Notes under the pieces: generated by a model
The model's input: the letters and a program-made list of their open reading frames with translations, nothing else
Told to the model about the DNA's origin: nothing
Databases searched by the model: none
Shown here: positions 5,701 through 32,534 of the stretch, in pieces
Position numbering within the stretch: position 1 is the first letter of the stretch
Layout: the number at the start of each line of letters is the position of its first letter
Made by a program: the position numbers and the translations under genes
From: Terriglobia bacterium
GTDB lineage: Bacteria; Acidobacteriota; Terriglobia; Bryobacterales; Bryobacteraceae
Direction of reading: 5' to 3'
NCBI GenBank assembly: GCA_963767595.1
Contig: CAVYEK010000021.1
Coordinates: 33,658 to 97,657, forward strand
Length of the DNA stretch: 64,000 bases

Positions 5701-6147
5701 ATGCGCACGCGCCGAAGCCACGTTTGGAGGTTTCGGGGACAGTTCTGCGCGCGAGCATGAAGATCTTCCGAATCAGCAGCTTACGGGAATTCTGCAGCCC
5801 CCGAGCATTCTCAAGAGAGCTACGAAACCCCGAAACTGCCGGCTTCAAAAGAGACGCAGTTGTTGGTGGGCCGGGAAGTACCGTTCTCCGACGAGGCGAC
5901 TGCGGGGCGAACTCCGGATGCTCCTGGCGAATCCATGCCTCGACCCTGCCGCGAAGTGTTTCGGCAATCCGCCGCATCCGGCCGGGCGGCGAGCCAGGAT
6001 GCGGACTGCGTCGCGCCGTCCCCATTCAATGAACGCGGTTGCCGAAGGGAAGGGAATAAGCGCAAAATAGGGCATGGCCGCCGTACGGCATCCCCAAGCG
6101 GCCTTGGCTTCGGCAACGTCCGGCCTAGCGGTAACTGAGGAGGCAAG

Positions 6148-6576: not shown

Positions 6577-6677
6577 GGCCGTGATGGGCTGCGCTCCAGC
6601 GGGACTTCGAGACTCCCGGTTCGATTTCCCATCTCGCCGTGGATGGAATCCAGGGCGCGCGACGAGGAGGTAATGGG

Positions 6678-8931: not shown

Positions 8932-8981
8932 GGTATGGTCCTCCAGTCGGCCAAGCCGGCCCGGCCGGCGCCCGATGCCGC

Positions 8982-11672: not shown

Positions 11673-11681
11673 GTGTCCTCC

Positions 11682-15020: not shown

Positions 15021-15022
15021 GG

Positions 15023-17510: not shown

Positions 17511-17525
17511 GTCGGAGCCTAAGCG

Positions 17526-18029
17526 TCAGAAATTCCCTGGCGCCGCGAAATCGGGCTTCAGCGTCGCAAGGTCGTAGCCCTTTCTGATCGCGGCATCGAG
17601 CGACCCGTCGTCTTTCTCCGGCTTGTAAGCGATCTCCACAGCCTCGAAAGCGAAACTGACCGACTCGGTGGGGTTCTCATGGCTGCCCGATAACTGTACC
17701 GAAGTGATGAGCACATCCTTGAGATAGATGCGGAAGTAGTCGTCCTGCTTGTCGCCGACCGGTTTGTCGTACATCAGGTAGGCGTCCATCAGGATGTCGC
17801 CGCTGGCGCAGTGATCGCACAGCAGCGGGGAGGTTTTATCCAGGACCTTCATGATGGTCAGGTTTGAAAAGTTGGCCCGTCCGGACTTGGCCTCCTTGCC
17901 GGATGCGCCGGCGCCATAAGTTGCCGTCTGGCTCACGCCCCAACTGAACGACAGGATGTCGATGGCCCCTGTCTTGCTTGAGCTTGGCCCTTTGATGCTG
18001 TCAATCACTAAATAAGCGTTTACAGCCAC
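17526..18029 (-). CDS. hcp: T6SS inner tube protein Hcp (TssD)
   Basis: 167 aa. 'AYLVIDSIKG...AIDILSFSWGVSQ' and overall Hcp1 length and pattern. GTG start with AAGGAG upstream. Confidence 0.95.
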   Translation of the reverse strand: MAVNAYLVIDSIKGPSSSKTGAIDILSFSWGVSQTATYGAGASGKEAKSGRANFSNLTIMKVLDKTSPLLCDHCASGDILMDAYLMYDKPVGDKQDDYFRIYLKDVLITSVQLSGSHENPTESVSFAFEAVEIAYKPEKDDGSLDAAIRKGYDLATLKPDFAAPGNF

Positions 18030-18090
18030 GGATTTCTCCTTTACTCCTTCTCCAAAGTGAACCTAACCGCACACAAACCGCGGCGCGCCC

Positions 18091-19578
18091 CTACTTGGCT
18101 GGCGCCGGCAGATCCGCCACCAGGCGCAGCGAAACCGTCAGCTCCTCAAGCTGGAAGTGCGGCCGCATAAAAGCGACGGCCCGGTAGCAACCCGGCTTCC
18201 CCGGAATTTCCGTCACATCCACGCGAGCTTCCCGCAACGGGCACCTGGCCTTCATCTGGGGCGACGCGGTGTCGTCGGGAACGACATATCGGGTAATCCA
18301 GCGATTCAGGAAGATCTCGGCGTCGGCGCGCGACATGAAACTGCCGATCTTGTCGCGCATCATGGCCTTCAGGTAGTGCGCGAAGCGCGAGATCGCCATG
18401 ATATAGGGAATTTGCGCCGACAAACGGGCATTGGCGTTCGCCGAATCGCTGTCGTACAGTTTCGGCTTCTGGCAGGATTGCACGCTGAAGAACGCGGCGT
18501 AGTCGGTGTCCTTGCAGTGCACCAGGGGCACGAAGCCGAGGTCCGCCAGCTCTTTCTCGCGCCGGTCGGTAATGGTCATCTCGGTGGGGCACTTCATCGC
18601 TACGTCGCCCTCATCGGTGTAGAAGTTGTGAACCGGCAGGCCGGTCACCAGGCCGCCCCCTTCCACGCCCCGCATGGCAACGCTCATGCCAAACTGCGTG
18701 AAGGAGTTGGTCATCCGCGAGGCCAGAGCGAAAGCCGCATTCATCCACAGATACTTCGAATGATCGGTTCCGTCCACGTGCTCTTCGTAATTGAAATCCT
18801 CCACCGGCTTGGTGTCCTTGCCGTAAGGCAGCCGGCCCAGGACGCGAGGCAGGGTGAGGGCCACGTAGCGGGAATCTTCCGACTGGCGGAAACCCTTCCA
18901 CTTGGCGTACTCCGTGGTGTCCAGGATCTTCGCCAAGTCGCGCGGAGCGTCCAGGGCGGTCCAGGACGGCAAGTTGAGTATGTCGCAACTGGCCGCCGTG
19001 CAGAAAGGCGCATGAGCGGCCGCCGCCACATGGGAAATCTGGTCCAACAATTCGATGTCCTCGGGGTGCTTGCCGAATTCGTAGTCCCCCACCAGGGCGC
19101 CGAAGGGGGCGCCGCCGAAGACGCCGTACTCTTCCTCGTAAACTTTCTTGAACAGGGCGCTTTGGTCGAACTCCGGCGCGCGCTGCAAGTCCTTCAGCAG
19201 CTCCTTCTTGCCGCAGTTGAGGATGCGGATCTTGAGCATGGTTCCGGTTTCGCTCTGATCCATCAGGTACTTGACCCCGCGCCAGCTTGCTTCGAGCTTC
19301 TGGAACGAGGGGTGATGCATGATCTCGTTTAACTGGATCGATACCAGGTGGTCGATTTGCGCAATGCGGGCGTTGATCATCATCTCCGCATCGCGCGCGA
19401 TGGTCATGGAGCCTTCCAGAACCTGCGCCACGAACTCCTTCACCAGGTTCTTGCCGCGCTCGCGTGAAGCCGGCTCCATGCCAAAACGGCCTTCTTCCAC
19501 GATCTGGTCGAGCAGGCTCTTCTCCTGAACCTGTTCGCTGGCAGCCACCGAAGCCTGCGCGCTCTTTCGCTCAGCCAT
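18091..19578 (-). CDS. tssC: T6SS contractile sheath large subunit TssC
   Basis: 'HHPSFQKLEASWRGVKYLMDQ' is the TssC signature. ATG 19578 forms an ATGGCTGA overlap with the tssB stop. Confidence 0.95.
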   Translation of the reverse strand: MAERKSAQASVAASEQVQEKSLLDQIVEEGRFGMEPASRERGKNLVKEFVAQVLEGSMTIARDAEMMINARIAQIDHLVSIQLNEIMHHPSFQKLEASWRGVKYLMDQSETGTMLKIRILNCGKKELLKDLQRAPEFDQSALFKKVYEEEYGVFGGAPFGALVGDYEFGKHPEDIELLDQISHVAAAAHAPFCTAASCDILNLPSWTALDAPRDLAKILDTTEYAKWKGFRQSEDSRYVALTLPRVLGRLPYGKDTKPVEDFNYEEHVDGTDHSKYLWMNAAFALASRMTNSFTQFGMSVAMRGVEGGGLVTGLPVHNFYTDEGDVAMKCPTEMTITDRREKELADLGFVPLVHCKDTDYAAFFSVQSCQKPKLYDSDSANANARLSAQIPYIMAISRFAHYLKAMMRDKIGSFMSRADAEIFLNRWITRYVVPDDTASPQMKARCPLREARVDVTEIPGKPGCYRAVAFMRPHFQLEELTVSLRLVADLPAPAK

Positions 19579-20089
19579 TGCCGCCTCCCTTTCCAATCTC
19601 ATTCTTCAGCTTGTCCAGCTTCTCGGTGTTGCCGACGCTCTCCAGCAGCAATTCCTCCAGCTTGTCGTTGCCCTGCAAACTGCCGCGGAGATCGGAAAGT
19701 CGAGTCCGCAGATCGAGCAGTTCCTTGAGGGGCTTGACCTGGCGCGCCACATTTTGCGGGTCGAAATCTTCCAGTTTGGCGAACTTCAAGTCCACCTTGA
19801 GGTTAGCGGCCTCCGGTTCCTCGCTCAGCTTGTTTTCCACGGCAAAGTTGAGGTGAGGTTTCATGCCTTCCAGGACGGAGTCGAAGTTGTCCGGATTCAC
19901 CTCGACGAACTTGCGATCCTTTAGTCTGGGCAGAGGCTGCTCCGGCTGGCCGGTGAAATCCCCTAGTACCCCGACCACGAAAGGGAGTTCCTTCAATTCG
20001 ATCGCCCCGCCCACCTCGACGTCGTAGGTGATCTGTACGCGTGGGGAGCGTACCCGATCCAACTTATGTTGCGTACTTTCTCTGGCCAT
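19571..20089 (-). CDS. tssB: T6SS contractile sheath small subunit TssB
   Basis: 172 aa. 'SPRVQITYDVEVGGAIELKELPFVVGVLGDF' is the TssB/VipA signature. Confidence 0.95.
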   Translation of the reverse strand: MARESTQHKLDRVRSPRVQITYDVEVGGAIELKELPFVVGVLGDFTGQPEQPLPRLKDRKFVEVNPDNFDSVLEGMKPHLNFAVENKLSEEPEAANLKVDLKFAKLEDFDPQNVARQVKPLKELLDLRTRLSDLRGSLQGNDKLEELLLESVGNTEKLDKLKNEIGKGGGNG

Positions 20090-20122
20090 AGCACCTCCCG
20101 AACAAAATGTTCAGTGAAACAC

Positions 20123-20151
20123 ACTATATGCCGCGCCAGAGGAAACGTCAA
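20123..20151 (-). promoter_or_regulatory. sigma70-like promoter for the tssB...vgrG operon
   Basis: On the minus strand: TTGACG (20151-20146), a 17-nt spacer, then TATAGT (20128-20123). The -10 ends ~33 nt upstream of the tssB ATG. A GGGAGG RBS follows. Confidence 0.45.
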
Positions 20152-20242
20152 GCTCCTCAGCCCCAACGAACAGGAATTTCCGGTTTTATTGGGGCGATCC
20201 GGGTATCCGGCCTGCCCGGCGGAGACGTGAAGGGCCAAAGTC

Positions 20243-21709
20243 TCACACCAGCGCCAGACGGCGCTCCACCAGCTTGCGCATCACCGCGCAACACTGCTGG
20301 CGCGCCTGTTCCCGATCGACCTTGGCCGCCGCCGCGAGATCCTCCGCCAATTCGTTCAAGGTCCGGGCGCCGTCACATCCCCGCAGGAAGTCGGCCACCT
20401 GCGGATCGAGCGCCAGTGAGCTGGGGATGCCGCCGGTCCGCCTGAGTTGCATCGAGGATGCCTTCCACTCTCCGGCCACCAGACGCAACTGCTGGTCGAT
20501 GTACGTATCGGATGGCAGCCGCGGCTTCCAAGCCATCATTTGGTCCGTGGAACGGTCCGTTTCCAGCCTGTCCTGGTTGCCGAATAATTCCACAATGGAC
20601 TCGCCAAACGGTTCCGTAAAGTCCAGGTTGGACGCTTCCTCAATGCGTATCCAGTTCTTGCCGGACCTGCGCCGCATGGCCAGGATCCCGCCCTGGATCT
20701 CCTGGACGCCATGGGCGCGATAATAGTCCATCCATTGGTCGAACCGTTGGTTGGCGGTGATCGGCGAATACGGCATCATCCGGCCGATGCGTTCGGAGGC
20801 GTACGCGGCGGCCGAGCGCGCGTAGCTGCGGAGCACCCAGGCGTCGCAGCCCGTATCCTCCAGCCACTCCTTCAGGCGGTCCTGCCAGGACTGCCCGCTC
20901 ACCTGGACCCACTCGAAGGTCATCTGCAGGAAGCCGTCTTCGTTGAGGTAGCGCGGCGCCGTCCGGACGAGCTCTCGGCAGTAATCGTCCAATTCCATGC
21001 TGTTTTCGCAATATATCTGCCCCGTGGACGGGGTCACGAAGAACGGCGGGTTGCTGACGATCAGGTCGAACGTCCGGCCCTGGACGGGTTCGAAGGTGTC
21101 GCCGGTCAGGCAGTCCACGTTCTTTACGCCGTTGAGCCAGACGTTGAAGCGGGCAAACTCGGTGGCGCGCGGGTTCAAGTCGGTCGCTACCACCCGGCGG
21201 CTGTGATCCGACGCGAGGATGGCGAGGATCCCGCAGCCGGCGCCAAGATCCAGGGTTGCCCCGGAAGGGCGCCGGATGGCGAACATTTGGAGCAGGCGCG
21301 TGGAAGGATTGGGCCACAAGACCATCGCGGAGGATTCCGGCGACTCCAGCGTGCGGGCCGGATCGGCTGCGAACAGGAAGCGTTCGCATGGCGTCAGCAT
21401 GACCCTGGGGGTCAAGCGGGCCCCGTCGCGAACCAGCATTCCCGTTTCCAGCATCTGGGCAACCACCGGTTCCGGCACAAGCCCCGAGATGGACTCGCTC
21501 TCCAGCGGCACGCCCAGGAAGAACCAGCGCAACAAGACGTGCAACGTCGAGGGCGCGGAAATGCGTTCCAGGAGATCCGGCAGGTTGCCGAGGCGGCTCG
21601 ACGGAAGGTCGCCCAGCGCCGGGTCTTGCTTGAATTGCTCGTGAGTGAAGCCGGCCTCCCTGAAGAACTCGAGAAGCTGCCGTGGAGCGGGGCCAATAGG
21701 AGTGAGCAT
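20243..21709 (-). CDS. class I SAM-dependent methyltransferase (NPPF-type) with long N- and C-terminal extensions
   Basis: 488 aa. Motif I 'TLDLGAGCGILAI', acidic 'VVATDLNPRA', motif IV 'LIVSNPPFF'. The C-terminal ~60 aa ('LDPQVADFLRGCDGARTLNELAEDLAAAAKVDREQARQQCCAVMRKLVERRL') look winged-helix/PqqD-like. Confidence 0.8.
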   Translation of the reverse strand: MLTPIGPAPRQLLEFFREAGFTHEQFKQDPALGDLPSSRLGNLPDLLERISAPSTLHVLLRWFFLGVPLESESISGLVPEPVVAQMLETGMLVRDGARLTPRVMLTPCERFLFAADPARTLESPESSAMVLWPNPSTRLLQMFAIRRPSGATLDLGAGCGILAILASDHSRRVVATDLNPRATEFARFNVWLNGVKNVDCLTGDTFEPVQGRTFDLIVSNPPFFVTPSTGQIYCENSMELDDYCRELVRTAPRYLNEDGFLQMTFEWVQVSGQSWQDRLKEWLEDTGCDAWVLRSYARSAAAYASERIGRMMPYSPITANQRFDQWMDYYRAHGVQEIQGGILAMRRRSGKNWIRIEEASNLDFTEPFGESIVELFGNQDRLETDRSTDQMMAWKPRLPSDTYIDQQLRLVAGEWKASSMQLRRTGGIPSSLALDPQVADFLRGCDGARTLNELAEDLAAAAKVDREQARQQCCAVMRKLVERRLALV

Positions 21710-21761
21710 CGGACAGTCCTCACGCCACTGTAGCGCAGAATGCGTGGCGTGACGTGGGGCA

Positions 21762-21783
21762 GGTTGTCAACCGGTTGTCAACC
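21762..21783. promoter_or_regulatory. two abutting copies of the 11-bp palindrome GGTTGTCAACC (candidate operator) in the MTase/tssK1 divergent region
   Basis: Exact copies at 21762-21772 and 21773-21783, giving an 11-bp period. A third degenerate copy, GATTGTCAC, lies at 21791-21799. Confidence 0.35.
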
Positions 21784-21897
21784 TGCGGCCGATTGTCACT
21801 CGGCCGCTGGCGAGCCCCAAAAACCGGAATTTCCACATTGTTCAGGACAGTTTCGGCGGGCGCCGGTTGGCATGACTGGCAAGTTCTGGTACTGTGA

Positions 21898-23259
21898 ATG
21901 CGAATGCGGCGATTGCAACCAGTGATCTGGACCAAGGGCACGTTTCTCACCCCCCAGCACCTGCAACTCCAGGATCGCTTTCTCGAAAGTCTCCTGGAGT
22001 TCCACCTGGACAGTCTTTCATTCCGTCCCTGGGGTTTCGCCACCCTGCAAATCAGCCGGGAAGCTCTCGCGGGCGGAGTATTCGGTATCGGCAGCGCGTC
22101 CGGGCTCCTGCCGGACGGGCTGATCTTCGATATACCCGGGGCCGACAGCGCCCCGCCGCCCAGGCAACTGATTGAGTGCTTCGAGAAGGATCAAACCACC
22201 CTTGACATGTACCTGGCCGTTCCGCAATACCGCGACCGGGGTCTGAACGTGGCCTCTTCCACGCGCGACAGCGGGGCCAGGTATCGCGCGGAAATCGAAG
22301 TGTTCCGCGACGAAACCACGGGCCTTTCGGAAAAGCCGGTCCAGGTGGCGCACAAGAATCTGCGCCTGCTGGTGGAAGGCGAGAATCGCGACGGCTGCTC
22401 GACCTTGCGCGCGGCCCGGGTCCAGCGCAGCGAAACCGGCGTTTTTCAACTGGACCCGGGTTTCGTGCCACCGTTGCTGGATTTCGCCGCTAGTGACCAC
22501 TTGGTTTCGATCGCGCGCCGTCTCGTGGAGCTTCTCACCGCGCGCTCCAGCGCCATCTCCGGAATGCGGCGGCAGAAGAACCAGAGCCTGGCGGATTTCA
22601 CCGCCGCCGATATCGCCAGTTTCTGGCTGCTCTACACCGTCAACACGGCCTTCCCGGTTCTCCGCCACTTATTCGAAACCCGTCGCGGGCACCCCGAGGC
22701 GCTTTATAACGCGATGCTCTCGCTGGCCGGAGCGCTCTCTACGTTTTCCACGGAAGTCCACCCGCGCGACCTGCCGGCGTACGATCACGACAATCTGGGC
22801 GTCTGCTTCACGGACCTGGACGAGAAACTGCGCACGCTGCTCGAAACCGTTGTGCCTACCAATATCGTGTCGCTGCCGCTGAAACTGGTCCAGCCGGCGA
22901 TCTACGCCACCTCCCTCGACAACGAGAAGTACCTGGTGAATACCCGGATGTACTTGGCGGTGAGCGCTGAAACCAGCCAGGCGGAGATCGTGGGCAAGAC
23001 GCCGCCACTGGTCAAAGTGTGTTCGGCGAGCCACATCGACCACCTGGTGCGGCAGGCGCTGCCCGGTGTTCCGCTGACTTACGTTGCGGCCCCGCCCAGC
23101 GCAATTCCGGTCAAGTTGAACCACCAGTATTTCAGCCTGAGCCAGTCCGGCCCCGCGTGGGAAGCCGTGCTGCGTGCCCGCAACCTGGCCGCCTACGTCC
23201 CCGCGGACCTGCCCAACCCGCAACTCGAGCTGATCATTCTGCTGCCGCAAGCGGGGTAG
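21898..23259 (+). CDS. tssK: T6SS baseplate protein TssK (paralogue 1)
   Basis: 453 aa. 'PVIWTKGTFLTPQHLQLQDRF' is the TssK N-terminal signature, and the protein is collinear with the second copy. Start is ATG 21898 or 21904, with no SD. Confidence 0.9.
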   Translation: MRMRRLQPVIWTKGTFLTPQHLQLQDRFLESLLEFHLDSLSFRPWGFATLQISREALAGGVFGIGSASGLLPDGLIFDIPGADSAPPPRQLIECFEKDQTTLDMYLAVPQYRDRGLNVASSTRDSGARYRAEIEVFRDETTGLSEKPVQVAHKNLRLLVEGENRDGCSTLRAARVQRSETGVFQLDPGFVPPLLDFAASDHLVSIARRLVELLTARSSAISGMRRQKNQSLADFTAADIASFWLLYTVNTAFPVLRHLFETRRGHPEALYNAMLSLAGALSTFSTEVHPRDLPAYDHDNLGVCFTDLDEKLRTLLETVVPTNIVSLPLKLVQPAIYATSLDNEKYLVNTRMYLAVSAETSQAEIVGKTPPLVKVCSASHIDHLVRQALPGVPLTYVAAPPSAIPVKLNHQYFSLSQSGPAWEAVLRARNLAAYVPADLPNPQLELIILLPQAG

Positions 23260-23272
23260 GGCCTCGTTAGTG

Positions 23273-23471
23273 TAGTGGGGCGTAAGAACTGCCCATTATC
23301 CATTGCCAGCCAATCATCGCGCTCGATCCGTAGAGCGGGCTTCCAGCCTGCCATGCCGGCGTCCTCGCCGGCATTCTTCGAGGAATGCCGGTACGGATAC
23401 CGGCATGGCAGGCTGGAAGCCCGCTCTACGGCGCTCTCGATAATGCGCATCATTTGCGCTGCGGACCACTA
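23273..23471. repeat. composite palindromic element: two inverted copies of a ~90-100-nt structured unit filling the tssK1/Pro-rich-gene convergent gap
   Basis: Perfect 32-bp inverted repeat 23328-23359 / 23400-23431 (ccgtagagcgggcttccagcctgccatgccgg). Inner 9-bp hairpin at 23368-23391. The outer ends begin TAGTGG (23273 on plus; 23471 on minus, where TAG is the stop codon). A third copy lies at 38742-38833. Confidence 0.6.
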
Positions 23472-25025
23472 GCGCCGCATTAGCAGAAACACCACAAGAC
23501 CGCCTGCCAGAAACATCAGCAGCCCTACAATTGCCAACAGCAGGACGTTGGTGGAAGGCGCCTTGACCGGCGCCGGCGGGGGCATGGAGTACTGCGGCGC
23601 CGGCATGGAGTATTGCGGCGCCGGCGGCGGGGGCATGGAGTATTGCGGCGCCGGTGGCGCCGGCATGGAGTACTGCGGCGACGGCAGACCGGGAATCGCG
23701 GGTTGCGCCACGCCTGGGATCGGGGGCGCATTGGCTTGCGGCATCGCGGGCGTGCTCGCGATCTGAGGCATGTGCGGATACCCGGGCGCCGGGGGCGTGG
23801 CGGGAGCGCCGGCGCCCGGGGTCGGGGGAACCGACATCAGGAGAGTGTACTCACTGGGACCCTGCTGCACGCCGGGTGCCTGACCCGGCTGCGGCGGCGA
23901 TGGAATCGCAAACGCCTGGGTCGCGCCAGCCGGTCCGGCATGGCGTGGCGCGGGCGGCGGAGCCGACCACGATCCCGGGGCGGACGGGAACCCGGACGCC
24001 GCCGGCAAAAGCGGTCCTTCGGTTCCCGGGGGCTGGGCCTGAAAGAGCCGCGTGAATTCGCCCCCTTGTGGACGGCTCGCGGGCTCCGGCACGGGCGGCG
24101 ATGGCGACTGAAACATGCGAGTAAATTCGCCGGCCGGGGCTGGGGACGGCGCTGGAGGCGGCCAATCCCCCGTTGACGGCGAAGACGGCAGGGGAGATTG
24201 ATAAAACACCCGCGTGAACTCTCCGGGCGAACCGGAAGCCGCCGGAGGCTGCGGAGGCGGCGCCGGCTCGGCCATCGGCGCGGCCGGGGCCTGAAACAAT
24301 CGGGTGAACTCTCCCGGCGTCGATTCCGCTGGCGGAGGCGCCGGCAGCGGACTCGCCGGCGATGCGGCAGAGTGCGGCAGCGTTGCAACCTGCGCGGCCG
24401 GGGCCTGAAACAATCGGGTGAATTCTCCCGGCTGCGGTTCGGCCGGCCCCGCAACAGGCGCCGCGGCGACCGGTGGAGGAGCGGGCGGCTCGGCCGGGGA
24501 CTGAAACAGTCGCGTAAACTCTCCCGGCTCGGAATCGACCGGTGACGGCTCGCCCGGCGGCGCCATCATCGGGCCGGCGGGCATCGGCATCGGTTCCTGG
24601 AACCTGCCGGCGAATGCGGTGGGCGGTACGGCCGGCGCGGGCGCGGCTGGGGGCCCGGGAGATGGCGGCTCCGCGGGCGGCTTGAACGTAGGAACCTTCC
24701 ACACGCCCGCGCGACTCAGTTTCTGAGCCTCCATCGCCGCGTGTTCCTGGTCCTTGAGCCACTCCAACAAATGCTGAAAGGGCGGGGCAGCCGTCACAAC
24801 GTACTGCGTCCCTTCGCTATCGTTCCCGAGTTCGAGCATCCGGGCCAGCGAGATCGGCGGAAGAGCGCGCAGCCTGGCCAGAATCCTCTCGTTCTCCGGA
24901 GTCTGCCCTTGCGCCAAGAAATGGACGCTCACAGCCCGCCCGGAGCTTCTCTGCCGAGCCCGGAAGCTCTTAGGGCCTTCACCAGGCAGTGGTTCGATCA
25001 ACTCGTACTTTTGATGGACGTCCAT
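23469..25025 (-). CDS. tail-anchored proline-rich repeat protein with a degenerate kinase N-lobe-like N-terminus
   Basis: ORF 23469..25067; ATG 25025 has GGAG upstream. Six 'GEFTR(L/M/V)F' motifs and four 'PQYSMP' motifs. C-terminal TM 'VLLLAIVGLLMFLAGGLVVFLLM'. The N-terminal 'YELIEPLPGEGPKSFRARQRSSGRAVSVHFL' resembles Hanks subdomains I-II but lacks the Gly-loop and the Lys. Confidence 0.7.
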   Translation of the reverse strand: MDVHQKYELIEPLPGEGPKSFRARQRSSGRAVSVHFLAQGQTPENERILARLRALPPISLARMLELGNDSEGTQYVVTAAPPFQHLLEWLKDQEHAAMEAQKLSRAGVWKVPTFKPPAEPPSPGPPAAPAPAVPPTAFAGRFQEPMPMPAGPMMAPPGEPSPVDSEPGEFTRLFQSPAEPPAPPPVAAAPVAGPAEPQPGEFTRLFQAPAAQVATLPHSAASPASPLPAPPPAESTPGEFTRLFQAPAAPMAEPAPPPQPPAASGSPGEFTRVFYQSPLPSSPSTGDWPPPAPSPAPAGEFTRMFQSPSPPVPEPASRPQGGEFTRLFQAQPPGTEGPLLPAASGFPSAPGSWSAPPPAPRHAGPAGATQAFAIPSPPQPGQAPGVQQGPSEYTLLMSVPPTPGAGAPATPPAPGYPHMPQIASTPAMPQANAPPIPGVAQPAIPGLPSPQYSMPAPPAPQYSMPPPPAPQYSMPAPQYSMPPPAPVKAPSTNVLLLAIVGLLMFLAGGLVVFLLMRR

Positions 25026-25117
25026 GAGCGCTCCGCTTCCCTGTAACATCGTACCGCGCCGGCTCAAAGTGAGCGCTGCACCGAGCGGCTTATGCTACCC
25101 TAATCCGGAGCGGGCTT

Positions 25118-26470
25118 ATGAACGTGCTATCGAGGGTGGTATGGTCTGAAGGCATGTATCTGGGGCCACACCATTTCCAGGTTCAGAGCCGCTATTTCGA
25201 AGATTCTATTCAGTTCGCCACCTCGACCCTGTGGTTCTCTTCGTACGGTCTGGCGGGTGTGGATCTCGATGCCGAAGCGCTCCAAAATGGCACCGTTTCG
25301 CTGCTCCATGCGCGGGGGATTTTCCGCGACGGCCTGACCTTCCACATGCCCGAAAGCGATGCGCTGCCGGAGCCACGGGCCGTCGCCGACCTGTTTCCCC
25401 CCACCCACGACGGCATTGTCGTGCTGCTCGCGATTCCACCGCGCAAACCCAACGGCTTCAATTGCTCGCTGCCGGACGGGGAGATCGCGGAGGCCCGCTA
25501 CACCGCCGAACCGCGCGTCCTGCGCGACGAAAATACCGGCGCCGACGAGCGCACCGTGCATCTCGGCCGCAAGAACCTGCGCCTGTTGTTCGATACCGAG
25601 CCGGCCGGCGACCTGCTCACCATGCCCATCGCGCGCGTGGTGCGGGGCGGCGCCGGCCACTTCGCCTACGACGCCAATTTCGTCCCGCCGGTGCTGGGGA
25701 TTTCCGCCTCCACCCGGCTCATGCTCCTGGCGCAGCGCCTCATCGAAATCCTGGACGACAAGAGCGCCGCCATCGGCCGCGGCGCGCGCAACGCCTCCGG
25801 CGGGCCGGCGGAGTTCTCCACGCGTCAGATAGCCAGCTTCTGGCTGATGCATGCCGTGAATTCCGCCTTGACGCCGCTGCGTCACCAGTTCATCGCCAAG
25901 CGCGGCCATCCCGAAGAGCTGTTCGTCGAGATGTCGCGCCTCGCCGGCGCCCTGTGCACCTTCGCCCTCGATTCGCACCCGCGCGACCTGCCGCTGTACG
26001 ATCACGACAACCTGAGCGTTTGCTTCGAGGAACTCGACCGCCACATTCGCGCGCACCTGGAAATCATGGTTCCCACCAACTGCATTTCCATTCCGCTGAA
26101 ACGCGCGGAGGATTACTACTACGAAGGCGACATCGCGGACCAGCGCTGCCTGGGCCGTTCGCGGTGGCTGCTGGCCATCCGCGCCCGAATGGGCGACGCC
26201 GACCTGATGGCCAAAGCCCCGGCGCTCATCAAGGTCTGCAGCCCGGCCTTCGTGCGGGAACTCGTGAAACGGGCCCTCCCCGGCATGCCGCTGATTCATC
26301 TTCCGGCGCCGCCGCCGGCGGTTTCCGCCCGGCTGGAAACGCAATATTTCGGTCTGAGCAAGGGCGGCCCCTGCTGGGACAACATGAGCGCGACGCGCAA
26401 GGTGGGAGTCTACGTTCCCGGTGAGTTTCCCGATCCCGAAATTGAGATTTTAGTCGTGCTGGAGAACTGA
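25118..26470 (+). CDS. tssK: T6SS baseplate protein TssK (paralogue 2), first gene of tssK-tssL-tssM
   Basis: 450 aa. 'RVVWSEGMYLGPHHFQVQSRYFE'. GGAG RBS. Confidence 0.9.
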   Translation: MNVLSRVVWSEGMYLGPHHFQVQSRYFEDSIQFATSTLWFSSYGLAGVDLDAEALQNGTVSLLHARGIFRDGLTFHMPESDALPEPRAVADLFPPTHDGIVVLLAIPPRKPNGFNCSLPDGEIAEARYTAEPRVLRDENTGADERTVHLGRKNLRLLFDTEPAGDLLTMPIARVVRGGAGHFAYDANFVPPVLGISASTRLMLLAQRLIEILDDKSAAIGRGARNASGGPAEFSTRQIASFWLMHAVNSALTPLRHQFIAKRGHPEELFVEMSRLAGALCTFALDSHPRDLPLYDHDNLSVCFEELDRHIRAHLEIMVPTNCISIPLKRAEDYYYEGDIADQRCLGRSRWLLAIRARMGDADLMAKAPALIKVCSPAFVRELVKRALPGMPLIHLPAPPPAVSARLETQYFGLSKGGPCWDNMSATRKVGVYVPGEFPDPEIEILVVLEN

Positions 26471-26471
26471 T

Positions 26472-27176
26472 ATGACCCCTTCGGCGAATATCCGCGGGCC
26501 GGAAAACCTGCCGCTCATTTTCCAGGAAGTTTTCACGGCCATCGAACGGCTGCGCTCGAATCGCCAGGGCGTCGCCGATTCGCAGTCTTTCCGGTATCAC
26601 ACCCGCGAGGCGCTAAAGACCGCCGCCGGCCAGGCAATGGCCGCCGGTTATTCACCCGACGACGTCAAGTTCGCCACCTTCGCCACGGTCGCGTTCCTGG
26701 ATGAATCCGTCCTCAATTCGCAGAACCCCGTTTTCACCGACTGGCTCCGCAAGCCGCTTCAGGAGGAGCTGTTCGGTACTCACATCGCGGGCGAGGTCTT
26801 CTTTCAGCATTTGCAGGCACTCCTCGGCCGAAACGATTCCGCCGACCTCGCCGATGCGCTCGAGGTCTACTATCTTTGCCTGCTGCTCGGTTTCGGAGGG
26901 CGCTACAGCGCGGGCAATCGCGGAGAACTGGCGCAGGTCATGAGCCTCGCCGCGGAGAAGATCCGCCGCATCCGCGGCCCGTTCGGGCCGCTTTCCCCCG
27001 CCTGGATGCTCCCCCAGGAACGTGTGGTCACCCGCTCGGACCCGTTGGTGCGAAAGCTGGGCTTTCTTGCCCTGGCGTGTGCGATATCGATGGCGCTGCT
27101 CTTCGGCGGCTACAAGGTCGCCCTTGGTTCGGGAGTGTCCGACGTTCGGGCCATCGCCGTTCCCGCTCAACAATAG
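26472..27176 (+). CDS. tssL: T6SS membrane-complex protein TssL (DotU family), no OmpA/peptidoglycan-binding extension
   Basis: 234 aa. 'ALEVYYLCLLLGFGGRYS' is the DotU signature. Single C-terminal TM 'LGFLALACAISMALLFGGY'. Confidence 0.9.
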   Translation: MTPSANIRGPENLPLIFQEVFTAIERLRSNRQGVADSQSFRYHTREALKTAAGQAMAAGYSPDDVKFATFATVAFLDESVLNSQNPVFTDWLRKPLQEELFGTHIAGEVFFQHLQALLGRNDSADLADALEVYYLCLLLGFGGRYSAGNRGELAQVMSLAAEKIRRIRGPFGPLSPAWMLPQERVVTRSDPLVRKLGFLALACAISMALLFGGYKVALGSGVSDVRAIAVPAQQ

Positions 27177-27185
27177 GAGGTCTGC

Positions 27186-30100
27186 GTGACCGTTCTTTAC
27201 ATCTTGCTCGCGGTGGCGCTGGTGGCGCTGATCGTCCTGGTCGTTCTTTTCTTCGTAAAGAAGAAGAAAGCCGAGGCCGCCGCCAATCAGCCGGGCGGAC
27301 CCGCGGGTTTCGGCGAAGATGAGATTTCGCTGCTGGTGCGCGCCGCCGAAGCCAGGCTCTCCGCCGCCAAGCTCGAACAGGGCGCCAGGATCGCCAACCT
27401 GCCGGTTTATATTCTGATGGGCCAGTCCGGCAGCGCCAAGACCAGCGTCATGATTCACTCCGGTCTCGATCCCGAACTGTTGGCCGGCCAAGTCTATCGG
27501 GATGCCAGCGTCGCGCCCACCCGGGCCGCCAACCTGTGGTTCTCACGGCGCAGCGTCTTCGTCGAGGCGGGCGGCGCCTTGTTGGCGGACCCGAGCCAAT
27601 GGAACCGTTTGGTCCGCGGACTGCAGCCGCGCTCCTCCGTGGTCGGCAAAGGCGGGCAGGCGCCGCGCGCGGCGGTGGTGTGCTTTGACAGCGAGACCTT
27701 CACCCGCGCCGGCGCGCAGGAAGCCGTGGTGAACGCCGCTCGTGTTTTGCGGGCCCGTCTGGGCGAGATCTCCCAGGCGCTCGGCGCCAATCTCCCGGTC
27801 TACGTGCTGTTCACCAAGATGGACCGGCTGCCGTTCTTTGCCGAGTACGTGCGGAACCTGAGCAACGACGAGGCCACCCAGGTGCTCGGCGCGACTCTCC
27901 CCCTCCTCACCGGCCGCACGGAAGGCGTGTACGCCGAAGAGGAGACCGCGCGCCTGAGCGGCACGTTCGAGCGGCTGTTCCGATCGCTGGCGGACGCGCG
28001 GCCGGAGTTCCTGGCGCGCGAGACCGACCCCGCGAAGCTGCCCGCCACCTACGAGTTTCCGCGCGAGTTCCGCAAGATTCGCCCCGCCGTGGCGCAGTTT
28101 CTGGTGGAGTTGTGCCGGCCCAGCCAGCTAAGCGTGGGGCCTGTTCTGCGCGGATTCTACTTCACCGGCGTGCGGCCGATCCTGGTCAACGAAACCGCCC
28201 CGGTCGCCGCGGCGGCGCCGCCGCGGCAGGCCGCCTACGGACCGGCCGCCGGCGCCACCGGCATCTTTCGGGCGGGCGCCCTGGCGCCGGCCGCACATGC
28301 CGCGCCGCCGCAGGCGGGCGTCACTCGCAGGGCGCCGCAATGGCTCTTTCTCAGCCACCTGTTCGCGGATGTTCTCCTTTCCGACCGGGCCGCCATGGGC
28401 GCCAGCGGGGCCAGCGTCAGGACGAGTTTCGCGCGCCGCGTGCTGTTCCTCGCGGCCGCCGCGCTGTGCCTGGCGCTCTCCATCGCCTTTACGGTTTCGT
28501 TCTTCCATAACCGCGGCCTGGAAACACGCGTGCGCACGGCCGCGCGGGGCGCCGCGGACGCCGGCGTGGCGGGCGCAGATCTCGCGCCCCTCGACAGTCT
28601 GCGGAAACTGGAGGCGCTTCGCCAGTCGCTCGAGTCCCTGCTCCAGTACCGGCGTGAAGGCGCTCCAATGTCTTACCGCATGGGCCTGTATGTCGGCGAC
28701 GATCTCTATCCGGAAGCGTGGCGCGTTTATTTCGGCCGCTTCCGCCAGGTGCTGTTCGCGCAAACGCTGGACAGCGTCCTGCAAGGGCTGCGCGGCCTGC
28801 CCGCAACCCCGGGGCCGGAGTACGGCCCCACCTACGACGCGCTGAAGGCCTATCTGATCGCCACCTCCCGCCACGAGCACAGCACCAGCCAGTTTCTTTC
28901 GCCGGTTCTGATGAAGTGGTGGGCCAATGGCCGCGCCATCGATCCGGAACGCCAGCAGCTCGCCCAGAAGCAATTCGATTTCTACTCCGGCGTACTCAAG
29001 GAAGAGAATCCGTACTCGGAAGCGAACGACGCCGGCTCGATCGAGAAAGCGCGCCGATATCTGACCCAGTTCGCCGGGGCCGAGCGGGTCTACGCTTTCA
29101 TGCTGTCCGAAACCGGTAAGCGCGTCCCGTCCATCGACTTCAATCGCCAGTTCGCCGGCTCGGCCCAAGTGGTGTTGGAGACGTACGAAGTGCCCGGCGC
29201 GTTTTCCAAGGGCGGCTGGGCTCTGATGAAAGACGCCATCCAGCACGCCGACCGGTACTTCAGCGGCGAGCAGTGGGTCCTCGGCGACCAGGCTTCCGCC
29301 AACATCGATCGCGCCAAGCTGGAGCAGGATCTGCGCGCCCGCTACAACGCCGATTTCGTGCAGCGCTGGCGGACCTACATCAAGTCGGCCTCGGTGGTCC
29401 GCTACGCCGGTCTGGCGGACGCTTCCCGGAAGTTGATCCAACTTTCCGGCAACCAGTCGCCGCTGCTGGAGCTGTTGGCGCTGGCATCGCAGAACACGGC
29501 GGTGGACGATCCGGATGTGGCGTCGGTGTTTCAGCCGGTACAGACCGTGGTCCCGCCGGGGAGCACGGACCGGTACATTCTGCCGCCCAACCAGAACTAT
29601 GTCAACGCGCTGGTCACGCTGCAGGCCTCTCTCGAAGCGATTGCCGGCCAGGGTGGAACCCCCGCCGATGCGGCGGCGGCTCCGGTGCTGGCCAACGCCG
29701 TTCAGGCCAAGATCACCACGCGCCAGATGGCACAGTCCTTCCGCATCGATTCCGAAGGCCACATCGAGGGTCAAGTGCAGAAGCTGCTGGAAGATCCCAT
29801 CGTCTACGTGGAAGGCATGCTGCGCGCGCTCGGCCCGGCGGAGTTGAATGCCAAGGGTAAGGCGCTGTGTGGACAGTTCCGCCCGGTGTTGGCCAAGTAT
29901 CCGTTCAACCCCAACGCCACCGTGGAAGCCACCGTGGTGGACGTCAATGGCCTCCTGCGCAAGCCCGATGGGGCCCTCTGGAGTTTCTACGACCAGAACC
30001 TGCAGAAGCTGCTGGTCAAACAGGGATCGCAGTTTGCGATCGGTCCCGCGGGGGGCGTGAACCCGGCTTTCCTCACCTTCTTCAACGCCGCCGCGGCGTT

Positions 30101-30557
30101 ATCCGACGCGATCTACGCCGGCGGCGCGCAGGACCCGCACTTCGTTTACACGCTCAAGGCGGAACCTTCGGAGGGCATTCAGACGGTGAACCTGGAGGTT
30201 GACGGGCAGAGGCTCAGCTACTCGGGCGGCGCGGCCACGCCCAAGCAGTTCAATTGGCAGGGAGGCGGAGCGCACGGCGCCAAGGCTTCGGTCAAGTTCG
30301 GCGGTCCGGAAATCACATTCTCGGAGCACGAGGGCATCTGGGCGGTGTTCCACTTCTTCAACAAGGCCGACCGTTGGACTCCCGCCGGCGCCGGCCAATC
30401 CCTCGAATGGATCATCCGCGCCGGAAAGGATCCGATGAAGCTGCCCAACGGAAAACCTCTCACCGTCCACTTCGAACTCGACATGGGCGGCGCGCCGGCG
30501 GTCTTCCAAACCGGTTATTTCTCGCGCCTCGCCTGCGTGGCGGACGTTGGGCGGTAG
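27186..30557 (+). CDS. tssM: T6SS membrane-complex protein TssM (IcmF family)
   Basis: 1123 aa. N-terminal TM, Walker A 'LMGQSGSAKTS', a second TM pair near residue 400 and a large IcmF-like C-terminal domain. GTG start with AGGAGG upstream. Confidence 0.95.
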   Translation: MTVLYILLAVALVALIVLVVLFFVKKKKAEAAANQPGGPAGFGEDEISLLVRAAEARLSAAKLEQGARIANLPVYILMGQSGSAKTSVMIHSGLDPELLAGQVYRDASVAPTRAANLWFSRRSVFVEAGGALLADPSQWNRLVRGLQPRSSVVGKGGQAPRAAVVCFDSETFTRAGAQEAVVNAARVLRARLGEISQALGANLPVYVLFTKMDRLPFFAEYVRNLSNDEATQVLGATLPLLTGRTEGVYAEEETARLSGTFERLFRSLADARPEFLARETDPAKLPATYEFPREFRKIRPAVAQFLVELCRPSQLSVGPVLRGFYFTGVRPILVNETAPVAAAAPPRQAAYGPAAGATGIFRAGALAPAAHAAPPQAGVTRRAPQWLFLSHLFADVLLSDRAAMGASGASVRTSFARRVLFLAAAALCLALSIAFTVSFFHNRGLETRVRTAARGAADAGVAGADLAPLDSLRKLEALRQSLESLLQYRREGAPMSYRMGLYVGDDLYPEAWRVYFGRFRQVLFAQTLDSVLQGLRGLPATPGPEYGPTYDALKAYLIATSRHEHSTSQFLSPVLMKWWANGRAIDPERQQLAQKQFDFYSGVLKEENPYSEANDAGSIEKARRYLTQFAGAERVYAFMLSETGKRVPSIDFNRQFAGSAQVVLETYEVPGAFSKGGWALMKDAIQHADRYFSGEQWVLGDQASANIDRAKLEQDLRARYNADFVQRWRTYIKSASVVRYAGLADASRKLIQLSGNQSPLLELLALASQNTAVDDPDVASVFQPVQTVVPPGSTDRYILPPNQNYVNALVTLQASLEAIAGQGGTPADAAAAPVLANAVQAKITTRQMAQSFRIDSEGHIEGQVQKLLEDPIVYVEGMLRALGPAELNAKGKALCGQFRPVLAKYPFNPNATVEATVVDVNGLLRKPDGALWSFYDQNLQKLLVKQGSQFAIGPAGGVNPAFLTFFNAAAALSDAIYAGGAQDPHFVYTLKAEPSEGIQTVNLEVDGQRLSYSGGAATPKQFNWQGGGAHGAKASVKFGGPEITFSEHEGIWAVFHFFNKADRWTPAGAGQSLEWIIRAGKDPMKLPNGKPLTVHFELDMGGAPAVFQTGYFSRLACVADVGR

Positions 30558-30671: not shown

Positions 30672-32318
30672 CTAGTTGCCCAGAAAACCCTCCAGCTTCG
30701 AAACCTCGCGCTCGGCGAGGTCGAGATTCCGCTTGGCCGCCTGTGCGTCGCCATTCTTGAGAGCCGCCTTGGTCTCGTCGAGGTAGTTCTCCATCCGCTG
30801 CGCCGAGGCGGCCATGTCGGCTCGCAGCCCAAGTCCCGAACGGGCCTGCTGGCTGCGCAGGTTATCCAGGCTGGTCTTGACGGTTCGGGCGCGCACATCG
30901 AGAAGCGCGAACTGCTCCCGGGCTTCTCTCAACTGCGCACTTTGTGTTGCCGCCGCCCCGGCCGCCGCGGCGGACGGCCGCGAAGCCTGCACGGGAGCCG
31001 CCTCGGTGGACTGTGAAACAGGCTGTTGCGCGGGCGGCGGGAACTGCTCAGCGGGCGGCGGAGCCACCGGCTGAGAGGAGTTTCGCGGAATTCCACGACG
31101 CGGCGACTGAGCGGCCACCGAAGGCCTCGCCGCGGCGGGGTTCCCGGCGGGCGCGGGCGCGGGCGCGGGCGCCGCGGGAGTCTCGCTCGCCGGCTCCGCG
31201 GCCGCGGGGCTCGAGGCCGGTGGCTGCGCAACCACCGCCGGCGCCGCCGTGGGCGGAACGCCCTCCGCGGTAGCATGGCGAAACTTCGGGATCTGCATCG
31301 CCACCACCACCAGCACGCCGAGGGTCACCAGCGATCCCAGCGCGATCCAAAGACCACGGTGGCTGCTCGCCGCCGGAGGAGGCGGAGGAGCAGCCACGGG
31401 TGCTGCCACGGGAACTGCCTCGGGAGCCTGCGCCGGGGCGGCCATCGGGGCTGTTTGTGAGACGGGAGCGGGAGGAGGCGCAACGGCCGCCTGCCCCGGC
31501 TTGCTCACCGAGAGCAACGCGGAACGCATCGCATCCGCCGTCTGGAACCGCTTCGCGGGATCCTTTTCGAGGGAGAGCAGAATGATCTCGCTCAGCGCCG
31601 GTGGCAGGTTCGGCGCGACCTGAATCGGCGGCGGCGGGTTGGCCTGCAGGTGCGCCGACATGATGGAGTACTCGCTATCTCCCTGGAACGGCCGCGCGCC
31701 GGTGCACACTTCGTAAAGCGAAACGCCCAGCGAATACAGGTCCGAGCGCGCGTCGAGATCCAGACCGCCCTTGATCTGCTCGGGCGACATGTAGTACAAA
31801 GACCCCACCGTCTGCCCGGTCTGCGTCAGCTTGCGGTCCTGTTGCATCCTGGCGATGCCGAAGTCCATCAGTTTCACGACGCCGTCAGCCGTGATCATCA
31901 TGTTCGCCGGCTTGAGGTCGCGATGGATTACGCCGCGAGCGTGGGCGTAAGAAAGCGCCGAAAGCACCTGCGTCATGTAGTCCACGGCCTGGCCGATCGG
32001 AATCGGGCCGGCCGCCATCAGGTTCTCCAGCGTGACGCCTTCGACGAACTCCATCAGCATCAGCAGTTGATTCTCGATTCGGAGCGCCGTGTGCAACACC
32101 GCGATATTGGGGTGATCGAGACTGGCCTGCACCTTGATCTCCCGCATGAAGCGGTTGGCGAGATCGGGATCGCCGTCCAGATCCGGAAGCAGCACCTTCA
32201 TCGCTTCGACACGTTCGGAAATGACATTCCGGACCTTGTAGACGCGACCCATGCCGCCGGCGCCGAGAATCTGTAGAACCTCGTAATCGCCGACGCGCGA
32301 ACCTACTTCGTAGTTCAT
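30672..32318 (-). CDS. membrane Hanks-type Ser/Thr protein kinase (PpkA-like position next to tssM)
   Basis: 548 aa. 'LGAGGMGRVYKV', 'VEAMKVL', 'HRDLKPANMM', 'DFGIARM' and 'GSLYYMSPEQ' are all intact. Pro/Ala linker, one TM ('LWIALGSLVTLGVLVVVAM'), a second Pro-rich linker and a ~110-aa helical extracytoplasmic C-terminus. Confidence 0.9.
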   Translation of the reverse strand: MNYEVGSRVGDYEVLQILGAGGMGRVYKVRNVISERVEAMKVLLPDLDGDPDLANRFMREIKVQASLDHPNIAVLHTALRIENQLLMLMEFVEGVTLENLMAAGPIPIGQAVDYMTQVLSALSYAHARGVIHRDLKPANMMITADGVVKLMDFGIARMQQDRKLTQTGQTVGSLYYMSPEQIKGGLDLDARSDLYSLGVSLYEVCTGARPFQGDSEYSIMSAHLQANPPPPIQVAPNLPPALSEIILLSLEKDPAKRFQTADAMRSALLSVSKPGQAAVAPPPAPVSQTAPMAAPAQAPEAVPVAAPVAAPPPPPAASSHRGLWIALGSLVTLGVLVVVAMQIPKFRHATAEGVPPTAAPAVVAQPPASSPAAAEPASETPAAPAPAPAPAGNPAAARPSVAAQSPRRGIPRNSSQPVAPPPAEQFPPPAQQPVSQSTEAAPVQASRPSAAAAGAAATQSAQLREAREQFALLDVRARTVKTSLDNLRSQQARSGLGLRADMAASAQRMENYLDETKAALKNGDAQAAKRNLDLAEREVSKLEGFLGN

Positions 32319-32534
32319 GAGAAGCTCCTCTCAGTCGACTCCCGCCTTGCTCCCAACCCCGAGCTCCCGCCCCAATTCATTATAGTTTGCGATTACAGGT
32401 TGCGATACGCCCATTTCCCCTTCCGCGGCAGGCCGGCGCAAGGGGAGTGGCCAGCCGAGACTTCCTCCGCCCGGCGGCCGCCACTTCAGCCGCTTGCCCG
32501 GACGGGCGACCGAGACAGCAGCTATACTGATCCG

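Follow-up and report, generated by a model that had tools for sequence, protein, structure and literature searches.

TssK links the contractile tail of a type VI secretion system (T6SS) to its membrane complex, and described T6SS loci, according to an earlier note on the DNA analysed here, carry one tssK gene. This DNA is a stretch of 64,000 nucleotides from a Terriglobia bacterium (Acidobacteriota, Bryobacteraceae; GenBank assembly GCA_963767595.1, contig CAVYEK010000021.1, positions 33,658 to 97,657), referred to below as the window. It contains two tssK genes, tssK1 and tssK2, with a gene of another kind, X, between them, and raises the question of what a single T6SS does with two TssK proteins. 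The earlier note suggested mixed or alternative connectors. As checks it proposed exact identities per domain, a phylogeny and a survey of synteny, and as grounds for giving up its view it named inactivating changes in one copy, or a duplicated tssK that turned out to be common and already characterised. We conclude that TssK1 and TssK2 are an ancient pair of paralogues inherited together. We regard it as probable that one T6SS requires both as subunits of its structure, and we tentatively favour, at somewhat less than an even chance, a whole picture in which a TssK1 trimer and a TssK2 trimer sit on two non-equivalent TssK sites of each baseplate wedge.

In the list of open reading frames (ORFs) of the window both genes are intact and lie on the plus strand (Table 1). 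In Pfam scans TssK1 matched PF05936 (T6SS_VasE/TssK/ImpJ; curated cut-off 23.4 bits) with 462.3 bits at positions 1-428 of the 429 in the profile, and TssK2 with 428.3 bits at positions 1-429; no third TssK was found in the window. By BLASTP the two proteins share 183 identities in 448 positions (41%), with 60% positives, one gap and E = 2e-128. The description of two full-length, collinear and diverged paralogues was thus accurate, the identity of 35-40% estimated by eye being right as to divergence and slightly low as a figure, and all four peptides quoted in the earlier note were found in the alignment. Domain by domain, the window copies are 37% identical in the shoulder, 50% in the neck and 37% in the head, the neck, or trimerisation region, being the part most alike. 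Both also align end to end with TssK of the enteroaggregative Escherichia coli (EAEC) Sci-1 system, known from the TssK and TssK-TssF-TssG wedge structures 5m30, 6giy and 6n38 (Park et al. 2018, PMC6300606). Residues 9-449 of TssK1 match residues 4-443 of 5m30 (E = 4e-57, 197 bits), and residues 5-448 of TssK2 match the same stretch (E = 3e-46, 161 bits). The best solved relative of TssK2 is 5y0e, to which it aligns with 178 bits versus 168 bits for TssK1, and the isolated C-terminal head structure 5m2y is matched by both. Judged from these alignments, TssK1 and TssK2 should both have the three-domain build of TssK, with an N-terminal shoulder, a helical neck and a C-terminal head, collinear with the solved proteins. 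As to the starts, the second Met codon of tssK1 (21904) is the start in most orthologues, which would give 451 residues, and a GGAG lies 8 nucleotides upstream of the tssK2 ATG.

The occurrence of the pair was followed from both genes. A survey anchored on TssK1, with one genome per species, gave 80 loci at 65-92% identity to TssK1, almost all in metagenome-assembled genomes (MAGs) of Bryobacterales/Solibacteraceae. The window proteins were mapped onto these loci, and at least 9 kb of flanking sequence was required on the relevant side. The tssK2-tssL-tssM module was found downstream of tssK1, on the same strand and 1.6-8.1 kb away, in 31 of 50 loci, and a divergent tssB operon was found upstream in 35 of 54. 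When both flanks reached at least 9 kb (n = 41), 19 loci had both neighbours, 8 had only tssK2-tssL-tssM, 7 only the tssB operon and 7 neither. Where tssK2-tssL-tssM was not nearby, tssK1 was followed or surrounded by genes for FGGY kinase, PheST, glutamate dehydrogenase, CstA and others, L028 and L045 being examples of an orphan tssK1 among metabolic genes. In the reverse survey, in which metagenome contigs were scanned with TssK2, tssK1 stood upstream of tssK2 in 18 of the 25 loci whose upstream flank reached 9 kb or more, and tssL followed tssK2 in all 66 loci that extend 1 kb or more downstream.

The arrangement extends well beyond these close relatives. An exhaustive search among representatives clustered at 50% identity gave best matches to TssK1 of 45-52% identity, and the contigs of four of them (P0122, P0273, P0121 and P0124) all had the same two-TssK architecture, namely a tssB...clpV operon, a TssK1-type gene, an opposite-strand gene of 420-610 codons without a Pfam match, a TssK2-type gene, and genes for DotU and TssM. 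Three representatives on the TssK2 side (P0165, P0145 and P0276) also came from two-TssK loci, and two of other clades (P0286 and P0135) from ordinary single-TssK clusters, one of which has TssJ. In distant loci that bear the pair (L081-L086, L088, L093 and L095) the TssK1-type protein is only 48-52% identical to TssK1; the one cluster member with a name that was obtained for the distant loci is from Gemmatimonadaceae. The pair is also carried by two finished plasmids of cultured strains. On pACIX901 of Granulicella tundricola MP5ACTX9 (NC_015057.1) the TssK1-type protein is 56% and the TssK2-type protein 44% identical to the window copies, both genes being annotated tssK; on the plasmid of Gemmatirosa kalamazoonensis KBS708 (NZ_CP007129.1) the values are 51% and 45%. 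Window TssB is 71% identical to that of Granulicella and 62% identical to that of Gemmatirosa. Both plasmids have the order vgrG-clpV-tssGFEA-tagJ-hcp-tssCB on one strand, then a TssK1-type tssK, a long opposite-strand hypothetical gene, a TssK2-type tssK, DotU and TssM. They differ from the window in that an amidohydrolase gene is inserted after tssK1 in Granulicella, and in that tssK2-tssL-tssM lies 30 kb from tssK1 in Gemmatirosa, where tssK1 remains by the tssB operon.

The two-TssK layout is not confined to this locus: the synteny survey found the pair recurrent in both directions and on two plasmids, and it is the conserved arrangement of an entire T6SS lineage found in Acidobacteriota and Gemmatimonadota. 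As to a duplicated tssK being common and already characterised, the first part is true, and for the second we came across no paper on the subject. In a survey of T6SSs carried by plasmids, acidobacterial and gemmatimonadete systems stand together on a branch of i4b, and duplications of tssA and tssC are mentioned, not of tssK (PMC9113992); a 2026 survey makes no mention of a second tssK. No paper noting or studying one was found in the literature searched, most subscription journals lying outside it, and the same literature yielded no case of a paralogous TssK connector within one T6SS. The lineage thus appears to be uncharacterised so far and would belong, by analogy with the surveyed plasmid systems, on that branch of subtype i4b.

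Two tssK genes might be no more than a redundant or decaying duplicate, or an artefact of assembly or binning that merged two T6SS loci. What speaks for this is one TssK1 orthologue (L064:10001-11360) found as two overlapping high-scoring segment pairs in different frames, covering residues 1-59 and 44-453, a frameshift or assembly error and the only disrupted TssK1 seen. Against it, the ORF is intact and full length in 78 of the 80 TssK1 orthologues, and Nei-Gojobori ratios of nonsynonymous to synonymous substitution (dN/dS) for the same genome pairs were 0.02-0.14 for TssK1, hence at most 0.14, and 0.04-0.21 for TssK2. Both copies are under purifying selection, TssK1 being slightly more constrained, and neither has the inactivating changes that the earlier note had thought of. 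Pseudogene decay is ruled out by this intactness and these ratios. A merger of loci or mis-assembly is ruled out likewise: every other core gene is single-copy, and the layout recurs in many independent assemblies and on the finished plasmids. We regard redundancy or artefact as effectively refuted by the intact ORFs, the plasmids and the dN/dS values. A recent local duplication was also discarded, since the copies are 41% identical and each forms a deep clade with many 50%-identity representatives.

The age of the pair was addressed with a neighbour-joining tree of 18 genome-matched TssK1/TssK2 pairs, drawn from Bryobacterales, Granulicella and Gemmatirosa and from the distant metagenome loci, and 22 single-TssK sequences. 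This phylogeny, one of the proposed checks, recovered TssK2-type sequences as monophyletic with 99.5% bootstrap and TssK1-type sequences with 71%; the two types together with four nearby single-TssK sequences received 86.5%. Across the 18 genomes the pairwise distances of TssK1 and TssK2 are correlated (r = 0.93), TssK2 evolving about 1.2 times faster than TssK1. In the 33 genomes with both, mean identity to the window copy is 75% for TssK1 and 71% for TssK2, and in the head 79% versus 67%. TssK1 and TssK2 have thus co-diversified across at least two phyla. In the simplest history the gene was duplicated at the root of the two-TssK lineage or close to it, and the copies were then inherited jointly. 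As an alternative, one copy may have been captured from another T6SS, since a sister relationship of the two types received a bootstrap of only 61.5%.

Over the 18 pairs, both types are conserved (at least 80%) with the same residue at 80 positions, and only five positions are conserved within each type but differ between them (TssK1 numbering, TssK1/TssK2): K13/E, T15/M, L22/F, Y246/H and A431/G. At the first four TssK2 has the residue that prevails among the 22 single-TssK sequences, and TssK1 is for this reason the derived copy. Of the five, three fall within residues 1-22, an enrichment (Fisher p = 0.0014 relative to all positions and 0.011 relative to conserved ones). The canonical TssG-docking motif there is W-x-E-G-M/L-x-L-x-P-Q/H-H-F-Q. 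TssK2 keeps it as W-S-E-G-M...H-F-Q (VVWSEGMYLGPHHFQ), and TssK1 has a conserved variant, W-x-K-G-T...H-L-Q (VIWTKGTFLTPQHLQ), with K13 and L22 in 18 of 18 and T15 in 16 of 18 TssK1-type sequences; the 22 outgroup sequences mostly have E, M and F at positions 13, 15 and 22. The closest single-TssK systems, those of Ralstonia and Paraburkholderia megaplasmids (i4b), have a homologous core set, one TssK place per listed record and the canonical motif, their TssK being 37% identical to TssK1 and 32% to TssK2; the single-TssK metagenome loci L094 and L096 likewise have a homologous core set and the canonical motif. The changes E13K, M15T and F22L are thus predicted to remodel the docking motif of TssK1.

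In the EAEC wedge the N-terminal 15 residues of the TssK trimer form a hydrophobic cavity that takes a TssG loop, and a deletion of residues 1-17 was used to test this contact (PMC6300606). Each wedge holds two TssK trimers, which touch each other, TssG loop 1 being bound at the apex and loop 2 at the periphery (PMC6300606). Window TssG aligns to EAEC TssG (6giy_C) through both loops, with the hydrophobic anchor positions kept, loop 1 corresponding to about residues 225-245 and loop 2 to about residues 307-325. We compared 13 TssG proteins from two-TssK loci with eight from single-TssK systems (Ralstonia, Aureimonas, Pantoea, Rhizobium, Eleftheria, Azospirillum, L096 and EAEC). At the end of loop 1 (about 240-247) most two-TssK systems have G-(D/E)-E-(V/I)-W-D. 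The second position of the acidic pair is E in 13 of 13 and the first D or E in 11 of 13, counts that are not independent since these TssGs form one clade. Single-TssK systems lack the D/E-E pair and are basic or neutral here, having QK, RR, DH, RT, DA, SA, AR and AA at the same site. Loop 2 is alike in the two groups; a Trp-rich loop 2 was tried as a marker of the two-TssK lineage and rejected, the LGW..W pattern being present in single-TssK TssGs also. The acidic change of loop 1 parallels the Glu-to-Lys change at position 13 of TssK1, which we take as a lead and not as proof.

Applied to the window, which has one set of TssG, TssF and TssE, the EAEC framework of two TssK trimers per TssG suggests the following mechanism. 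One TssG would hold two non-equivalent TssK trimers, and in the two-TssK lineage the sites would be split between the paralogues. TssK2, with its canonical docking motif, would take the canonical-looking loop 2 and, being co-transcribed with tssL-tssM and encoded beside X, would contact the membrane complex. TssK1, with its remodelled motif and its genetic tie to the tssB...clpV operon, would take the acidified loop 1. In EAEC one gene product fills both sites, whereas the window would use for this two paralogues of 41% identity, one of them with an altered docking motif. We infer from the comparisons above that both copies are needed, that each forms homotrimers and that each has its own site. 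The specific assignment of TssK1 to loop 1 and TssK2 to loop 2 is a rather doubtful part of this picture. The suggestion of mixed or alternative connectors keeps some likelihood, and the two non-equivalent TssK trimers of the published wedges give a more specific reading of it.

Several observations weigh against the two-site picture. In 7 of the 41 loci with both flanks tssK1 is an orphan amid housekeeping genes, and in 14 of the 41 there is no tssK2 within 10 kb. The site assignment rests on one charge co-variation in a single clade, that of the TssGs counted above, and EAEC loop 1 itself has Asp-His at the site of the acidic pair. The bootstrap for sisterhood and the split orthologue of L064, both given above, belong here too, as does the 50% identity of the necks, which is compatible with heterotrimers.

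Heterotrimers of TssK1 and TssK2, for instance at 2:1, would make an asymmetric connector. The trimerisation bundle formed by the neck is indeed the part best conserved between the paralogues (50%, versus 37% in shoulder and head), and the co-diversification at r = 0.93 would suit any obligate partnership. However, the genes are separate transcription units, often kilobases apart (30 kb in Gemmatirosa), and in 7 of the 41 loci no T6SS gene lies closer to tssK1 than about 10 kb, which is less usual for subunits of one oligomer. The sharpest fixed differences fall in the TssG-docking N-terminus and not in the neck, and the solved TssK structures are all homotrimers. We consider heterotrimers unlikely.

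The orphan genes could also mean that TssK1 has left the machine and serves as a regulator, an assembly chaperone or a TssK-like adaptor, in line with its non-canonical residues in an otherwise strongly conserved W-x-E-G-M...H-F-Q motif and with the 7 of 41 loci in which it stands amid metabolic genes. Yet none of the three TssK domains is missing or shortened in TssK1, whose very high Pfam score exceeds that of TssK2, and it is nearer than TssK2 to the solved EAEC TssK (197 versus 161 bits). The commonest position of tssK1 is divergent from tssB, and an orphan placement is weak evidence, since the genes of a T6SS are frequently dispersed over the genome. A non-structural TssK1 is in our opinion very improbable.

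Gene X is convergent with tssK1 and divergent from tssK2. The earlier note called it a non-T6SS gene, but it is no bystander: X is a conserved accessory gene specific to the two-TssK lineage. It is listed as a proline-rich ORF of 532 codons with a start at 25067; the start most likely lies at 25025, because orthologues begin MD(F/V)xQKYELIEP. The product consists of an N-terminal domain of about 100 residues, some 350 proline-rich residues, in which six GEFTR(L/M/V)F repeats are followed by a GPSEYT motif, and a C-terminal transmembrane helix. It has no Pfam match at E <= 1, Pkinase included, its database relatives are unnamed or 'hypothetical' fragments, and a literature search for the GEFTR motif gave nothing relevant. 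An AlphaFold2 model of the N-terminal 114 residues (mean predicted local distance difference test score 80.6) was compared with the PDB using Foldseek, and the top matches were all N-lobes of protein kinases (probability 1.0, TM-score on the query 0.45-0.57, E ~1e-3). At the site of the catalytic lysine (VAIK) X has VSVHFL, with His in place of Lys, and there is no kinase C-lobe (HRD/DFG), so that X does not have a complete Hanks-type catalytic domain. Because of the His at the lysine site and the missing C-lobe, the modelled protein is predicted to be an N-lobe-only pseudokinase on a membrane tail anchor, not a kinase.

A homologous architecture is found in L084, L086, L081, L082 and Gemmatirosa. 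The majority of the distant loci have a V(M/S)VH(F/L)L N-domain, (G/S)EFT(R/Q/K)(M/L/V)F repeats and a C-terminal anchor; in L081 the repeats and anchor are kept and the VxVHxL domain is not, and in L086 the domain and anchor are kept without recognisable repeats. In Granulicella, Gemmatirosa and MAGs with long tssK1-tssK2 spacers, X is directly upstream of and divergent from tssK2. It never adjoins tssK1 when the two tssK genes are far apart, as in Gemmatirosa, and it is absent from loci with tssK1 only. Because X stays by tssK2 and is missing from tssK1-only loci, its genetic partner is the tssK2-tssL-tssM module. The earlier note had thought that one copy might dock to the tail-anchored protein; the linkage speaks against TssK1 in this role, since X travels with tssK2-tssL-tssM and not with tssK1. 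The GEFTR repeats contain a Thr, and a kinase gene lies beside tssM; this Thr may be a phosphorylation site. A fuller version of the two-site picture has TssK1 on loop 1 through a compensating charge swap, TssK2 on loop 2 and coupled through X to a membrane complex without TssJ, and the GEFTR repeats as phosphorylation or docking sites for the adjacent Ser/Thr kinase. It is more doubtful still than the loop assignment.

The transcription units are as the earlier note had described them: tssK2 alone is in tssK-tssL-tssM, and tssK1, between the divergent methyltransferase gene and the convergent X, is monocistronic. The tssK2 gene stops at 26470, tssL starts at 26472 and tssM at 27186; to judge from the first two positions, tssK2 is translationally coupled to tssL. 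Upstream of tssK1 a spacer of 188 bp is shared with the divergent methyltransferase gene. It holds GGTTGTCAACC twice in tandem, both times exactly, and immediately downstream a degenerate third copy, GATTGTCAC; six matches to GGTTGTCAACC were found, counting both strands, versus 0.76 expected, both exact copies being those of this spacer. The tandem palindrome is a candidate operator. Downstream, a spacer of 209 bp is shared with the convergent X, and its folding (dG -129.3 kcal/mol, z = -11.2 versus shuffles) gives a large hairpin without a T-run. This hairpin is likely to be a bidirectional terminator or insulator; alternatively it could be an element resembling repetitive extragenic palindromes (REP) or miniature inverted-repeat transposable elements (MITE). 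Scans of positions 20000-27300 for sigma-70 promoters and terminators gave nothing useful near tssK1 or tssK2, and a sigma-54-like TGGCA...GCA upstream of tssK1 was dropped, its spacing being wrong.

These spacers bear on a further explanation, in which TssK1 and TssK2 serve as alternative connectors in two kinds of baseplate, formed according to condition or anchor and including the case of TssK1 on X and TssK2 on TssL/TssM. A promoter region of its own with a tandem palindrome, together with the large hairpin, would make separate regulation of tssK1 possible, and the better conservation of the TssK1 head (79% versus 67%) suggests a conserved partner of its own. Nevertheless, X segregates with tssK2-tssL-tssM and not with tssK1, there is a single set of TssG, TssF and TssE for docking, and a merely alternative copy would often be lost whereas both copies persist across phyla under similar constraint. 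We hold alternative connectors to be about as improbable as heterotrimers.

The remaining genes of the locus are those of a complete system in one copy. The core set of tssB, tssC, hcp, tssA, tssE, tssF, tssG, clpV, vgrG, tssL and tssM lies entirely inside positions 7054-30557, and each core gene other than tssK is present once in the window (Table 1).

Table 1. Features of the two-TssK locus (positions in the window, 1 being its first nucleotide)
Feature	Position	Strand	Basis and remarks
Sheath/baseplate/spike operon, single copy	7054-20089	-	Pfam matches
vgrG	7054-9105	-	Pfam
clpV	8982-11681	-	Pfam
tssG, wedge adaptor with two TssK-binding loops	11682-12701	-	PF06996, 347 bits
tssF	12698-14539	-	Pfam
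tssE	within 14529-15164	-	Pfam
tssA	15023-16918	-	Pfam
tagJ	16800-17510	-	Pfam
hcp	17526-18029	-	Pfam
tssC	18091-19602	-	Pfam
tssB	19571-20089	-	Pfam
Methyltransferase gene, MTS (small) domain and DUF7782/PqqD-like C-terminus, between tssB and tssK1	20243-21709	-	Pfam
GGTTGTCAACC, a GGTTG-T-CAACC palindrome, in two exact copies side by side	21762-21783	none	Methyltransferase/tssK1 spacer
tssK1 (TssK1-type)	21898-23259	+	PF05936 and ORF call; 453 residues from first ATG; own transcription unit
Near-perfect hairpin, stem of about 48 bp, in tssK1/X spacer	23328-23432	none	Folding of 23262-23468
Accessory gene X	23469-25025	-	Translation; convergent with tssK1, divergent from tssK2
tssK2 (TssK2-type)	25118-26470	+	PF05936 and ORF call; 450 residues; leads tssK-tssL-tssM
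tssL (DotU family)	26472-27176	+	PF09850, 155 bits
tssM (IcmF family)	27186-30557	+	PF14331, PF06761, PF21070, PF06744
Hanks-type Ser/Thr kinase gene adjoining tssM	30672-32318	-	PF00069, 181 bits
TPR and GT41 (O-GlcNAc-transferase-like) glycosyltransferase gene	with the kinase gene, 30672-34427	+	Right after tssM

EAEC has TssJ-TssL-TssM, whereas no TssJ was detected in the window: PF12790 had no match among the ORFs scanned, small ORFs not having been scanned exhaustively, and a tblastn search with the TssJ of the single-TssK locus L094, which has tssJ-tssK-tssL-tssM, found nothing, a weak test since TssJ diverges fast. Nor is TssJ listed in the nine two-TssK loci with precomputed Pfam tables.

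After tssM, the Ser/Thr kinase is a possible PpkA-like regulator, and the kinase and TPR-GT41 genes may provide post-translational control of this T6SS. Kinase genes also lie 3' of tssM in L084 and L095, and in some related loci tssM is followed by genes for an FHA-domain protein, a PP2C phosphatase and a kinase; tblastn found no homologue of the Fha and PP2C proteins of related loci in the window. A gene for a PDZ-GAF-SpoIIE (PP2C-type) phosphatase is present at 44383-47136 (+), about 14 kb from the T6SS, and the same set of domains directly follows tssK1 at L022:11337-13832, where tssK2-tssL-tssM is not nearby. At the other end of the locus, an ORF of 145 residues without a family match and then a DUF4280 (PAAR-like) gene occupy 6139-7067 (+), divergent from vgrG, and are likely to be a spike-tip or effector-adaptor pair.

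A homologue of the methyltransferase gene keeps its place between tssB and tssK1 in most Bryobacterales loci, and the gene may be an accessory gene of the two-TssK lineage. A homologue also adjoins tssK1 in the distant locus L088, and on Aureimonas pAU20a tssG is followed by a gene whose product has a methyltransferase-regulatory domain.

As proteins, TssK1 and TssK2 do not stand out within the TssK family; the unusual point is a T6SS lineage that combines two obligate-looking TssK proteins with a conserved pseudokinase anchor and in which TssJ is not detectable. The use of several paralogues of a structural protein in one machine is known from the minor Hcp proteins of Bacteroidales, which form heteromeric rings (PMC13213661), and multiple VgrG/PAAR paralogues follow the same concept; these cases concern the tube or spike and the choice of cargo, not the TssK connector. 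Annotation pipelines expect one tssK per system, and the pair matters there; the second gene is already visible in the RefSeq annotation of the Granulicella plasmid.

The locus defines a widespread, unstudied T6SS architecture in the abundant Acidobacteriota of peat and soil, marked by two TssK proteins, a conserved methyltransferase and a pseudokinase that serves as anchor protein, and without a TssJ that could be detected. In the model systems both trimers of the wedge come from one gene, so that their roles cannot be separated genetically. If the two-site picture is true, the lineage with two paralogues would offer a naturally labelled baseplate, in which the roles of inner and outer TssK could be dissected genetically in the cultured hosts Granulicella tundricola MP5ACTX9 and Gemmatirosa kalamazoonensis KBS708, and the mismatch between the baseplate and the membrane complex would also become open to genetic dissection.

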